A DNA stretch of 32,000 bases from Candidatus Heimdallarchaeota archaeon (GTDB lineage: Archaea > Asgardarchaeota > Heimdallarchaeia > JABLTI01). Positions 8,708 to 13,109 of the stretch are shown here, in pieces. Each line of letters opens with the position of its first letter. The stretch's first letter is position 1. The stretch spans positions 34,498-66,497 of the forward strand of contig JAUWKS010000011.1 of NCBI GenBank assembly GCA_030614005.1, given 5' to 3'. The translations under genes were made by a program, and so were the position numbers. The notes below the pieces were generated by a model that was given only the letters and a program-made list of their open reading frames with translations, was not told the origin of the DNA and did no database searches.

Positions 8708-8887
8708 TTTGTTATTCTTTTGTTAATTATCTTTATCCATTCGAGTCTTTATTGTTAATTTTTCAAAAATAGCTGTATTTCTATGTGATTTTGAATATGA
8801 GCGAAGCACTCTTAAATTTAATAGCAATCTTCATTTAGGAGAAGGACAATATACCATTCCACTATTAATAGTATAGAAGTGATCACA

Positions 8888-9118
8888 ATGACCGCTGTTG
8901 ATAGATATTCCATCACATACAAAGAAGAAGTTAAGCATTTTAACAATCATGACGAGGCAATTATTTACGTGTTAAACTTACCACCAAGCACAGATAAAAT
9001 TAATATAAAAAAGTACGGTAGTTGGCAGAAAGTTTTGATTGATATTGTTGGAGAAATTAACGAAATCCAAAGATTAGTTAAGGTAGTTGGTGGTTGGAAA
9101 TCTTACGCAAAGAAATAA
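8888..9118 (+). CDS. Small hypothetical protein (76 aa from ATG 8888)
   Basis: ORF fills an otherwise empty gap, has protein-like composition and a GTGAT SD-like sequence just upstream of the ATG. No recognisable motif. Confidence 0.65.
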   Translation: MTAVDRYSITYKEEVKHFNNHDEAIIYVLNLPPSTDKINIKKYGSWQKVLIDIVGEINEIQRLVKVVGGWKSYAKK

Positions 9119-9275: not shown

Positions 9276-10982
9276 ATGAAAAATGAACTGGTAATAGAAC
9301 AGCTAACTCAAATAGCTGATCTTTTGGAGATTATTGGTGAAAGTGTCTATAAAATAAGGGCTTATCGTAAAGCTGTTGATTCTTTACAGCAAACTGCTGA
9401 GGATATTGAAGTTATTGTTCAAGAAAAACGAGTAAAGGAATTACCAGGCATCGGTGATGCAATAGGTGAGAAAATCAAAGAGATAGTTGTAAATGGAAAA
9501 ACAACCTACTTGGATAAATTAACTCAAGAAATACCTGTAGAAGTTACTAGCTTAATGAAAGTTGAAGGTATAGGCGGAAAAACTGCTGGTAGATTATACA
9601 AAGAATTAGGTATTAAATCTATTACTGGTCTTGAAGAGGCAATCGAAAATGGCCTGTTAGCTAAACTTTCTGGATTCACTGAAAAGAAAATAGCAAAAAT
9701 CACTCGAGCATTGACTTTTGTAAAATCGGAACGGAGACCTCTTTTCAAAATGATTCCAATAGCATTAAATTTGAAGAAATTCTTGGAAGGGATAGATCTC
9801 ATTCAATCTGTGGAAATTGGTGGTTCCATTCGAAGAAGAAAATCAACAATACGAGATATTGATTTACATGCAATTGGAAAAGAAAAAGATTTTGAGCAAA
9901 TTATGGATATTTTCTCTCAAATGGATGATGTAGAGGACATTGTTGTCAAGGGTCCACTTAAAACAACTGTTAAACTTATGACTGGAATAAACGTAGATCT
10001 TCGAGTCTTGGAAGAGCATTCCAATGGATCTGGTCTAATTCATTCTACGGGTTCTAGAAATCATACCGTAAAATTACGAACAATTGCAGATAGGAATAAT
10101 CTGCTTCTGAATGAGTACGGTTTATTTGATGGAGAGGGGAAAACACTCATTGCTAGTGAAACCGAAGAAGAAGTTTACAAGGCAATGGGGATGAGTTATA
10201 TTCCTCCGGATATTAGAGAAGATCGTGGAGAAATTGAGCTGGCACAGAAGAATTCTCTGCCGGATTTAATTAACCTAGAAGATATTAAAGCTGATTTTCA
10301 TGTACATACAAATTGGTCTGATGGGAAATCTGTAATTCATGAAATGGCAGATGCAGCAGCAGAAAGGAATTATGAATATATCATTATTACAGACCACTTC
10401 GGTAAGAATCCGATCTACAAACCAATGAACGAAGAAAAATTAACGAAACAAAGAAAAGCTATTGAACAAATAGCCCAAAGTTCTTCAGTAGAAATATTGC
10501 AAGGGGTTGAATGTGATATCCTGAAGGACGGCTCTCTTAGCATTTCAAACAAATTAATGAAAGACTTGGATTTTGTTATTGCATCCATTCATTCGATTTT
10601 TGATATGCCTGAAGAAGAAATGACTTCGAGAATTATTACCGCAATGGATAATGAATTTGTACATGGTATCGGTCATCCTACTGGAAGACAATTAGGGAAA
10701 AGAGGAGGATATTCAATAAATTTCTCAAAAATAATTGAAAAATGCATTGAATCAAAGACATTTCTAGAAATAAATGCTTATCCGAATCGATTGGATGTAG
10801 ATGATAATGTTGTATTTGATTTCAAAAATAAAATTGAATTCTTCATTGGAACAGACAGTCATCAACATCAACAGCTAAAAAATATGGGTTATGGATTAAA
10901 CATCGCTCGAAGAGCCTGGTGCGAAAAGAAGAATATATTGAATACTCTGACCTCTAAAGAGCTGCTAAGAAAATTAGATTGA
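9276..10982 (+). CDS. polX: DNA polymerase/3'-5' exonuclease PolX with C-terminal PHP domain
   Basis: 8-kDa domain YKIRAYRKA, HhH motifs (LPGIGDAI, VEGIGGKTA), GSIRRRKSTIRDID with both catalytic Asp, third Asp in VDLRV, and TGS. PHP motifs HVHTNWSDG, ITDH, GVECD, SIHS, GHPTGR and GTDSH. Confidence 0.95.
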   Translation: MKNELVIEQLTQIADLLEIIGESVYKIRAYRKAVDSLQQTAEDIEVIVQEKRVKELPGIGDAIGEKIKEIVVNGKTTYLDKLTQEIPVEVTSLMKVEGIGGKTAGRLYKELGIKSITGLEEAIENGLLAKLSGFTEKKIAKITRALTFVKSERRPLFKMIPIALNLKKFLEGIDLIQSVEIGGSIRRRKSTIRDIDLHAIGKEKDFEQIMDIFSQMDDVEDIVVKGPLKTTVKLMTGINVDLRVLEEHSNGSGLIHSTGSRNHTVKLRTIADRNNLLLNEYGLFDGEGKTLIASETEEEVYKAMGMSYIPPDIREDRGEIELAQKNSLPDLINLEDIKADFHVHTNWSDGKSVIHEMADAAAERNYEYIIITDHFGKNPIYKPMNEEKLTKQRKAIEQIAQSSSVEILQGVECDILKDGSLSISNKLMKDLDFVIASIHSIFDMPEEEMTSRIITAMDNEFVHGIGHPTGRQLGKRGGYSINFSKIIEKCIESKTFLEINAYPNRLDVDDNVVFDFKNKIEFFIGTDSHQHQQLKNMGYGLNIARRAWCEKKNILNTLTSKELLRKLD

Positions 10983-11059
10983 ATTTTTTTTCTGCTTGCT
11001 AAAAAATTAATAATCCGTTATTTAGTATAATATTTCATCAATAATTTGTACATAAAAAA

Positions 11060-11215
11060 TGGCGAAAAAGGGACCATTTCAAGCGTCTTGCAATCTCAAT
11101 AGATTGAGAGTTTTGCAATATTCTATCGTGGTCTTTATCCTTCGGAAATCCTAACCAATATCTATCTCAATCCTAAAGATATTGTTAGTCTTTTTCGGAG
11201 GCTTTTTCTTCGCCA
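11060..11215 (+). ncRNA. Candidate structured ncRNA or cis-regulatory RNA (multi-branch, ~155 nt), family unrecognised
   Basis: Closing stem TGGCGAA/TTCGCCA. Long arm GGGACCAT...GTGGTCTTT with apical TTGCAA-TCTCAA-TAGA-TTGAGA-GTT-TTGCAA. Further stems TCC-TTC-GGA, CTAAC(C)AATATCT/AGATATTGTTAG and AGTCTT/GAGGCT. G-U pairs and TTCG loops favour the plus strand. Confidence 0.6.
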
Positions 11216-11289
11216 ATTAAATTATAGGCATTATCTTTAAAATAGGTTTTAATAACAGCTAAGAAGAAACTTTTATTCTCAAACAATCC

Positions 11290-11325
11290 TTTTTAACTGA
11301 AAAATTAACATGAAACAGTTAAAAA
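11290..11325. repeat. Perfect inverted repeat TTTTTAACTG-N16-CAGTTAAAAA
   Basis: 10-bp arms at 11290-11299 and 11316-11325, between the structured RNA candidate and the DUF202 gene. Confidence 0.45.
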
Positions 11326-11460
11326 CCAACTAATCTCTACTTCCAATGAATGCTTTTTCTAAGATACTATCACAAAACCATCGAAGTGATTGTTTCACAT
11401 CAAATATAAAGTAACAATTTTTAATGTTCACGTTAATATAACTATGGTAGGTCAATTGAT

Positions 11461-11826
11461 ATGAAGAAACCCAACAGAAAGAAAAAGGAAACTAAATCAA
11501 TATATAGTGTGCATACAGACGAATTAATAATGAGGGATCATCTCGCAGTAGATAGAACTTCTTTAGCAAATGAAAGAACGTTCCAAGCGTATGTTAGATC
11601 CGGATTAGCTTTCGGTGCTGTTGGATTTGGATTAATTAAACTGATTGAAACTACAATAGCTTTGGTTACCCTTGGTTGGATTCTAATTGTAATTGGTATT
11701 ATAACACTAATAATTGGAACAATACGATTCTTCCAATTTAGAAAAAGTATTAGTGCCTTGAGTTGTCAATATAATATTAAAGATAAATCAAAAATTTTAG
11801 TTGTTGAAGAAAAGGAAAACGAGTAG
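11461..11826 (+). CDS. DUF202 (YidH-like) small membrane protein
   Basis: Signature RDHLA...LANERTFxAYVRSGLA followed by two hydrophobic helices. Confidence 0.9.
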   Translation: MKKPNRKKKETKSIYSVHTDELIMRDHLAVDRTSLANERTFQAYVRSGLAFGAVGFGLIKLIETTIALVTLGWILIVIGIITLIIGTIRFFQFRKSISALSCQYNIKDKSKILVVEEKENE

Positions 11827-11870: not shown

Positions 11871-13109
11871 CTAATAGTCAAGTTTATCGAAGAGTCTCAT
11901 AGTGTCAGGTTCGATTTCCATATCATCAAGGAATCGCATTGCTGCTCTATTGGGATCACTTGACCGGTAAATGTATCTTCCAACTATGATAATATCTGCT
12001 CCGGCGCGAAGTGCTTCTGCCAATGGTTTTCCAGGTTTCAATCCACCTGCCACTGCTACTAAACCACCAGTGATTTTCTTGATTTTCTTGATATCACCCC
12101 AAACAGAGCGCGACGCAGAAGTTCCTTCTTTCGTTGCTGTTCCTTCTTTTTGAGCAACTTCTTGATCAATACCTCTGTGTAGAATGACTACTTTTGGTTT
12201 TTCTGGAAGTGCATCAAGCATAGCGATAAATTTAACTTGATTAGTGTTTAGGGAATCAATCCAAGCATGAATGCCTCTTTTATTACAAGCACGAATGAAT
12301 TCTTTTACGGTGTCTATCGGAGCAATACCTGAGACAACACAAGCATTTGCAGTTGCATCTGCTGCTGCATTTACTTCTGCTCTACCAACATCAAGTGTTT
12401 TCATATCGGCTATAATATAACCACCTGGTTTCAATTCTCTCATTCTGCCAACAGTTTCTTCGATACCATATTTCTTGATGTATGGTGTACCGATTTCGAT
12501 AATCATTCTATCAGATTTTGGAAGTTGCTCAACAATCTTGATTGCTGCTGATAACGACCCAACATCTAAAGCTACTTGGACATAAGGAGGGTTCCAGAGT
12601 GTCTGAGGTTTGAATTTCATTACTGGGTGTCTCGCACGATCCTTTTCTGCGATGAGTTTTTTCATTGGTGGATAGTTACTGAGAGCTCGTTTTAAAGCTA
12701 ATCGTGTTGCACCATAGTTATAATAGTAAATTTTAGACTCACTTTCAGCTTTAGGATGAATATACACACTCACAATTACTACATAATTCATGAGCTTATC
12801 TTTGGGTATATCTCCTTCTGCTGCTGCATCTGCAACAGCTTTTGCTACAGCCATTTGTGCCGGACCGAAAATTTTCCCTGCTTGGTCTAAATTTTCGATT
12901 GTAACTTTTGGTACAATGAGTGTTCTAGGATGTGGTTGTAAGTTTGGTTTTATTAATGCTAAAAGGGGTGTGTGTCCTTTCGATAATTGAGTCATCCCAT
13001 TAGCAAATGCAATACCAACCGGTCCATCCTTATCCCCGATCATTAAATCTATATGGGCTAACTCATGACCTTTACCTTGAAGAGCTTCGCCAATAAAAAA
13101 GTCTGCCAA
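11871..13109 (-). CDS. fae-hps: Bifunctional formaldehyde-activating enzyme / 3-hexulose-6-phosphate synthase (Fae-Hps)
   Basis: Fae domain IGEAL...ELAHIDLMIGDKDGPVG...GHTPLL...FGPAQMAVAKAVAD...YNYGATRLA. HPS barrel PYVQVALD, IEIGTP, ADMKTLD, LHRGID, VAVAGG and IIVGR. TTG start. Confidence 0.95.
   Translation of the reverse strand: MADFFIGEALQGKGHELAHIDLMIGDKDGPVGIAFANGMTQLSKGHTPLLALIKPNLQPHPRTLIVPKVTIENLDQAGKIFGPAQMAVAKAVADAAAEGDIPKDKLMNYVVIVSVYIHPKAESESKIYYYNYGATRLALKRALSNYPPMKKLIAEKDRARHPVMKFKPQTLWNPPYVQVALDVGSLSAAIKIVEQLPKSDRMIIEIGTPYIKKYGIEETVGRMRELKPGGYIIADMKTLDVGRAEVNAAADATANACVVSGIAPIDTVKEFIRACNKRGIHAWIDSLNTNQVKFIAMLDALPEKPKVVILHRGIDQEVAQKEGTATKEGTSASRSVWGDIKKIKKITGGLVAVAGGLKPGKPLAEALRAGADIIIVGRYIYRSSDPNRAAMRFLDDMEIEPDTMRLFDKLDY

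Follow-up and report, generated by a model that had tools for sequence, protein, structure and literature searches.

The segment at positions 11060 to 11215 of the 32,000-nucleotide stretch of Heimdallarchaeota DNA analysed here (the window) reads as an independent minus-strand gene for a non-coding RNA, with a covarying, Y-shaped fold and membership of an uncatalogued RNA family; we put the probability of this reading, covering gene model, fold and family together, at roughly 0.75. By comparative analysis, the RNA is a three-way junction in which a closing stem, P1, carries two arms of about 22 layers each, with complementary tips. Judged by its sequence matches among the genomes sampled, the family is uncatalogued, lineage-restricted and confined to a single family of Heimdallarchaeia. 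We infer the strand, the ends and the transcription of the gene from sequence signals, and the positions of its features are collected in Table 1.

The segment folds well on both strands. The minus strand reached -44 kcal/mol (z -4.26) and the plus strand -49 kcal/mol (z -5.18), and with 200 dinucleotide shuffles for each strand, none (0/200) folded as well. The folding is thus far better than that of shuffled controls on both strands, in line with the first-pass annotation, which had read the segment as a multi-branch structured RNA. The closing repeat TGGCGAA/TTCGCCA (11060-11066/11209-11215) also stands exactly as that annotation had placed it. Its five-helix layout gives way to a three-way junction: the two elements it had drawn as separate hairpins, TCC-TTC-GGA (its P3) and AGTCTT/GAGGCT (its P5), pair with each other, form the base of arm 1 and covary across the paralogs. 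The two further copies in the source genome, types b and c, each fold alone into the same Y (z -2.4 and -5.8, respectively).

Table 1. Positions of the RNA gene, its parts, its signals, its neighbours and related genes. Plain numbers are window positions; G, C and L labels denote genomes, contigs and loci. R1 and R2 are the two covariance models.
Feature	Position	Strand	Remarks
RNA gene, type-a family member	11060-11215	-	~156 nt mature length; 5' end 11215, 3' end 11060; 176 bits (R1), 158 bits (R2)
Type b copy	G000:C83:17828-18006		126 bits (R1)
Type c copy	G000:C92:5094-5263 (end about)		105 bits (R1)
P1 5' strand, UGGCGAAGAA	11206-11215	-	10-bp helix, 95% of cells paired, 4 double-change pairs
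P1 3' strand, UUUUUCGCCA	11060-11069	-	from alignment and covariation
Junction J1/2, AAAG	11202-11205	-	RAAG in all three paralog types (alignments)
Arm 1	11139-11201	-	basal helix, internal loop, distal helix, 13-nt loop 1
Arm 1 basal helix, CCUCCGAAAA / UUUCCGAAGG		-	10 bp; C.A and A.C mismatches in type a
Arm 1 conserved small internal loop, xAC / GG		-	followed by a variable distal helix of 10-12 bp
Loop 1 of arm 1	11164-11176	-	13 nt; 12-16 nt across the family
Loop-1 segment, GGAUUGAG	11166-11173	-	proposed kissing partner of 11101-11108 (RNAduplex)
Junction J2/3, AUAAA	11134-11138	-	A-rich; within near-invariant GAWAAAGAC
Arm 2	11072-11133	-	P3, loop, 3-bp helix, 4x4 loop, 6-bp helix, tip
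Arm 2 base		-	P3 GACCA/UGGUC, then 3x4-5 internal loop, then 3-bp helix
Arm 2 conserved 4x4 internal loop, AAUA / GACG	11119-11122 / 11084-11087	-	family form AAUA/GAC[G/A]
Arm 2 upper part	tip 11094-11112	-	6-bp helix UUGCAA/UUGCAA, variable tip
Arm-2 tip segment, CUCAAUCU	11101-11108	-	proposed kissing partner of loop 1
TATA box, TATTTTAAAG	11235-11244	-	-30 to -21 from the G of UGGCG
Upstream element, CTGTTAT	11252-11258	-	(A/C/G)TGTTAT at about -44 to -38 in type a and type c promoters
Oligo-T run, T6	11054-11059	-	putative archaeal terminator, directly 3' of P1
Small ORF	8879-9118		on the other side of PolX-PHP from the RNA gene
PolX-PHP polymerase gene	9276-10982	+
DUF202 protein gene	11461-11826	+
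Fae-Hps fusion gene	11871-13109	-
SRP RNA gene (G000:C30)	L042:1471-1502 and 1799-1816
RNase P RNA gene (G000:C82)	L043:1470-1501

P1 is conserved in sequence, while the other helices vary freely and keep their pairing. In arm 1, 18 of the 19 varying pairs of helices 2-4 change on both sides; in arm 2, 90-98% of the cells of helices 5-7 are paired and 12 pairs show double changes. Only 1-2 nt separate arm 2 from the 3' strand of P1. The conserved unpaired bases are grouped at the junction (RAAG and GAWAAAGAC) and in the internal loops of both arms (AAUA/GAC[G/A] and xAC/GG). On inspection, these internal loops gave no clean match to a K-turn, a loop E or a UAA/GAN motif.

Covariation supports the same helices. 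Across 30 distinct sequences, 92.6% of 1402 pair cells held standard pairs, compared with 70% for shuffled partners and 35-47% for slid partners; fitting the alignment to the model works in favour of the structure, and the margin over the controls is large. The compensatory change that the first-pass annotation had expected in homologs of a genuine RNA was found in 34 of the 48 pairs, which change on both sides, and none of 500 shuffles reached any of five covariation measures. Covariation was also counted in the 26-sequence set. RNAalifold, applied to a plain MAFFT alignment, returned the same helices except for the variable distal helix of arm 1.

We read the gene on the minus strand because a conserved TATA box precedes it, an oligo-T run follows P1, its promoter resembles those of the SRP and RNase P RNA genes, and wobble pairs across the family favour this strand. 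The TATA box (TATTTAAAAG-like) keeps both its position at -30 to -21 and its sequence in types a and c, and type b carries an AT-rich box at the same place. A run of T4-T6 stands at the same point after P1 in all three paralog types, and the promoter geometry matches that of the SRP and RNase P RNA genes. Transcription would begin about 25 nt past the TATA box, at the first bases of UGGCGA, with the start probably at the U or G of UGGCG in the 5' strand of P1, and would stop at the oligo-T run immediately after the closing stem. The first-pass annotation had favoured the plus strand on the grounds of its G-U pairs and of a TATA-like stretch upstream. That stretch is not conserved, and the conserved TATA box lies on the other side, where it serves the minus strand. 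The wobble count ran in the opposite direction as well: 87 G-U or U-G cells support the minus strand and 19 A-C or C-A cells would support the plus strand, in alignments fitted to the minus-strand model, which somewhat inflates paired and G-U cells. At two positions of the arm 1 basal helix, type a has C.A and A.C on the minus strand, which would be G-U on the plus strand; types b and c have U-A, U.G or A-U at the same positions. A plus-strand reading would also carry conserved internal U5 runs, and U5 runs terminate transcription by archaeal RNA polymerase.

In the source genome, the SRP and RNase P RNA genes share a stable-RNA layout: TTTTTAA(A/T) lies at -30 to -22, and the RNA begins with UUGG(C/U). 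The SRP RNA there ends in CGCCAC followed by T7, the same ending as in the new RNA. Further upstream, the element (A/C/G)TGTTAT is common to the promoters of the anciently diverged types a and c (for example, type c at L074, about 1457-1463); no such element was seen in front of the SRP or RNase P RNA genes. It may be a transcription-factor site that co-regulates the RNA family.

To follow the family through related genomes, we used covariance model R1, built on the minus-strand alignment, and a second model, R2, built from 26 members. R1 gave two to three strong matches (90-200 bits) per genome in all 12 genomes of one Heimdallarchaeia family (GTDB). The paralog types are 41-68% identical to one another, and the three model matches in the source genome 45-60%. 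In the tree, the split between (a+b) and c is older than the split of the two genera, and the split between a and b falls within the genus of the source genome; the sequences point to two ancient lineages of paralogs, a+b and c, each of which survives in the two genera of the one family. The BLASTn search for copies that the first-pass annotation had proposed returned a single copy in the source genome, together with homologs in 9 of the 10 genomes of the genus and in the second genus of the family. All nine other genomes of the genus that carry type a have it at the syntenic locus.

Outside this family, R2 gave no convincing match in 70 other Heimdallarchaeia genomes, and the family model gave none in 150 other genomes sampled across the Asgard phylum. 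A scan of GTDB genomes with an exact pattern found matches only in the same family. A degenerate-pattern scan of metagenomes returned 26 contigs, of which 13 were model-positive and 4 add new sequences; the single match on a viral contig does not score with the family model and is attributed to chance. Weak matches in four genomes (G005, G012, G007 and G003) are truncated or degenerate. Among weak matches, a shortened one of 27.7 bits with the family model lies at L077:1501-1626 on the minus strand (G005:C55:247093-247218). A P1-like stem (UGGUGAAAAU.../...CAUCA) and a T-run are recognisable, arm 1 is almost wholly missing, and the match may represent a fourth copy, decayed or minimal.

Genus-wide, type a sits between PolX and the DUF202-FaeHps pair. 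The start of the DUF202 reading frame lies 246 nt from the RNA, within one nucleotide of the 245 given by the first-pass annotation. Type b is flanked by two GT1 glycosyltransferase genes, and type c of the source genome has convergent genes on either side; the gene next to types a and b on the 3' side runs toward them. In the source genome, no gene lies downstream of any copy on the supported strand, and no neighbour gene is common to all three paralog types. At the type-a locus, most species of the genus have PolX-PHP between the small ORF and the RNA gene. Three species lack it there (G004, G005 and G007; loci L022, L016 and L018 compared), and in these the small ORF takes its place and the RNA and DUF202-FaeHps are kept.

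The tips of the two arms are complementary in most homologs, and with moderate confidence we read this as pairing between the arm-1 loop and the arm-2 loop. For the window copy, RNAduplex gave -10.6 kcal/mol for loop 1 with the arm-2 tip, against a shuffled mean of -4.1 (p 0.005). Across homologs, the partners change together: GGAUUGG occurs with CUCAAUCC, GGGUA with UACCC, GGGUU with AACCC and, in the second genus, GAGAGA with UCUCUC. In type b, the G-rich partner is a GGGAG bulge in arm 1 instead of the terminal loop, and it faces a UUCCC loop, and in some type-c members the contact is weak, at 3 bp. Over 14 representatives, own partners paired at -7.0 kcal/mol and swapped partners at -5.5 (permutation p 0.008); a GGG/CCC core is common to the types, and part of this signal is therefore not covariation. 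The first-pass annotation had located TCTCAAT at 11094-11100 and 11165-11171 and ATTGAGA at 11103-11109, all correctly, and had proposed that the duplication makes either a switch or a long-range contact. The long-range contact is borne out, with complementary loops in most homologs and partners that covary. The switch is not general to the family: in the source species, the arm-2 tip at 11101-11108 can also pair locally with 11094-11100 in the minimum-free-energy fold, and this competing stem is confined to that species and its nearest kin.

Comparison with known RNAs yielded no relative. At gathering thresholds, Rfam 15 had no match in the whole window, and at E<=10 the interval 10900-11500 gave chance-level matches only (CRISPR-DR45, CsrB and CncR1). 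ARAGORN and RF00005 found no tRNA or tmRNA cloverleaf in the RNA. These searches agree with the first-pass annotation, which had been unable to match the segment to tRNA, 5S, SRP, RNase P, C/D sRNA or the common riboswitch consensus sequences. Its suggestion of a novel non-coding RNA likewise holds, given strong covariation, the RNA's own promoter and terminator, and no credible Rfam match at E<=10. Literature searches on Heimdallarchaeia or Asgard non-coding RNAs gave nothing that bears on the Y-shaped RNA. Several identities were considered and set aside. The 5S rRNA model (RF00001) gave no match at E<=10, the 5S motifs (loops A, C and E) are absent, and a genuine 5S gene lies elsewhere in the genome. 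The SRP and RNase P models (RF01857 and RF00373) had no match in the window, and both genes occur elsewhere in the source genome at full length, the SRP RNA with 105 bits and the RNase P RNA with 125 bits. For the Y RNA of the Ro RNP, no PF05731 (Ro60/TROVE) protein was found in the 90%-complete source genome, and control genomes were positive. For a C/D or H/ACA guide, inspection of the alignment revealed no conserved C, D or ACA box, the internal loops measure 3-4 nt, and no Rfam snoRNA model matched the RNA.

The design nevertheless has parallels. Like the purine (RF00167) and TPP (RF00059) riboswitch aptamers, the RNA has a P1, near-parallel arms, a distal loop-loop or loop-helix contact and conserved junction bases. 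Unlike them, it is about twice the size and has extra conserved internal loops, its own promoter and terminator, and no expression platform or downstream gene; neither sequence nor model similarity connects it to them. In the Alu domain of SRP RNA (RF01857), helices 3 and 4 are likewise hairpins at a junction whose loops are joined by G-C pairs, and the SRP RNA of the source genome starts with UGGCAAGAC and ends with GUCUCGCCA plus a T-run, resembling the P1 and terminator of the new RNA. The arms of the new RNA, in contrast, span about 22 layers rather than 5-8 bp, and the UGUNR U-turn and helix 5 with the S domain are absent. 5S rRNA shares the paired ends that close a three-way junction, a loop of about 13 nt on the first arm, internal loops in the second and a stand-alone gene; it differs in length (about 120 nt against 156), and the new RNA has arm tips paired together and three paralogs. 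Y and vault RNAs are 100-160 nt long, with a conserved terminal stem followed by oligo-U and several diverged paralogs per genome, as here. The new RNA differs from them in internal architecture and has no Rfam score with them, and we claim no relatedness.

As to function, two arms of about equal length would pack side by side and be clamped at their tips into a rigid body, the clamp consisting of base pairs between an arm-1 segment with GGG(A/U) and an arm-2 loop with (A/U)CCC. The conserved junction and internal loops would form a binding surface or pocket. We hold it slightly better than an even bet that the RNA is a compact, rigid body acting in trans, binding either a protein (as an RNP scaffold or decoy) or a small ligand. 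A more specific proposal, tentative and on the unlikely side, is a lineage-specific small RNP RNA family, stable, U-tailed and closed by a terminal stem, serving as scaffold or decoy of a putative protein complex, comparable to eukaryotic Y, vault and 7SK-type RNAs, or else a free-standing metabolite sensor acting in trans. A ribozyme or some other function is quite unlikely. Antisense pairing is unlikely as the mode of action because the loops are occupied with each other. A trans-acting antisense RNA would use loop 1, the arm-2 loop or the A-rich junction to pair with mRNAs, and the choice between local stem and kissing contact in the source species would serve as a switch. Such a role would suit a free-standing gene equipped with its own promoter and terminator, the Shine-Dalgarno-like GGGAU and AGGAU carried by the loops, and an arm-2 tip that in the source species pairs either locally or with loop 1. 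The loops are complementary and covary together, however, which is unexpected of a seed for external targets; conservation is highest at the junction and in the internal loops rather than in an accessible seed, and the competing stem is limited to the source species and its nearest relatives. We regard this alternative as doubtful, a little more so than the RNP or sensor proposal.

A cis-regulatory RNA on the plus strand, either a riboswitch-like 5' leader of DUF202, as the first-pass annotation had suggested, or an element in the PolX 3' UTR, is very unlikely. It would gain from the slightly more stable plus fold in the source species (-49 against -44 kcal/mol), from the two invariant type-a mismatches that would become G-U, from the adjacency of RNA and DUF202 kept within the genus, and from type b, whose plus sense also faces a gene about 200 nt away. 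Against these stand the unconserved plus-strand upstream region, the absence of a plus-strand terminator or expression platform after P1, conserved U5 runs that would end archaeal transcription within the RNA, and the 87 to 19 wobble count. Paralog c lies between convergent genes, the downstream genes differ by paralog (DUF202, a glycosyltransferase and none), and three species retain the RNA while lacking PolX. We exclude a role as leader or riboswitch for the family, since no gene follows any source-genome copy on the supported strand; on the minus strand, the terminator comes directly after P1 and the next gene is convergent. Still less probable is a mobile or reverse-transcribing element of which the RNA would be a remnant or passenger, be it a MITE, a retron msr/msd-like RNA or a transposon guide RNA, two forms of which (a small mobile element and a retron-like layout) the first-pass annotation had raised. 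P1 does make a terminal inverted repeat and there are several copies per genome, but BLAST finds one copy in the genome, the copies are old, diverged paralogs at loci syntenic across species, and the one viral-contig pattern match fails to score with the model. None of the copies of the three paralog types has a gene for reverse transcriptase, transposase, TnpB or IscB beside it, the type-c neighbour reading frames having been judged to lack reverse transcriptase outside the Pfam scan. Least credible of all is a divergent, expanded 5S rRNA, or another core RNA, missed by Rfam. On the minus strand, the elements do follow the 5S order (helix I; helices II/III with a 13-nt loop; helices V/IV with internal loops), and Rfam 5S gave nothing above E 0.001 in the source genome or 11 family members. 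A recognisable, permuted 5S, an SRP RNA and an RNase P RNA are nonetheless all present elsewhere in the genome, and three diverged paralogs per genome and a loop-loop contact are unlike 5S, whose motifs are absent.

Asgard archaea are the archaeal group closest to eukaryotes, and apart from the universal ones only a small number of structured non-coding RNAs are known there. The new RNA has strong covariation behind it, its gene model is clear, its tertiary design is compact, and its paralogs are old and have been retained; we found no Rfam or literature counterpart. Orphan RNAs of this kind have repeatedly proved to be ribozymes, ligand sensors or RNP cores. At 156 nt, the RNA is a defined, testable object, for which a long-range contact is predicted and whose junction and loop surfaces are conserved; the narrowness of its family limits its immediate impact. 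Annotation based on Rfam misses RNA genes in this lineage, a permuted 5S rRNA gene among them.

That 5S gene came to light at E<=10, where two weak 5S-like matches on contig C124 revealed a circularly permuted arrangement. It carries canonical sequences for helices I-II, loop C and loop E, together with pairing flanks, and the same arrangement occurs in complete genomes of a sister family. The Rfam 5S model scores such permuted genes at only 14-38 bits, and it gave no match in most of the Heimdallarchaeia searched. In the literature searched, permuted 5S genes were found only for organelles (PMC4267664). The gene lies at about 850-1010 of locus L033 (minus strand) in the source genome (G000:C124), and further loci are L028:1501-1680 (plus strand), L029, L027 and L030. 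In the permuted order, the 3' two-thirds of the molecule (the 3' strands of helices III and II, helices V/IV and the 3' strand of helix I) precede the 5' third, which holds the 5' strand of helix I, helix II, helix III and loop C. The flanks pair as CUCAUCA/UGGUGAG in the source genome and as CUAAUGGCA/UGCCAUUAG in two complete genomes, and this complementarity suggests excision and circularisation of the 5S rRNA.
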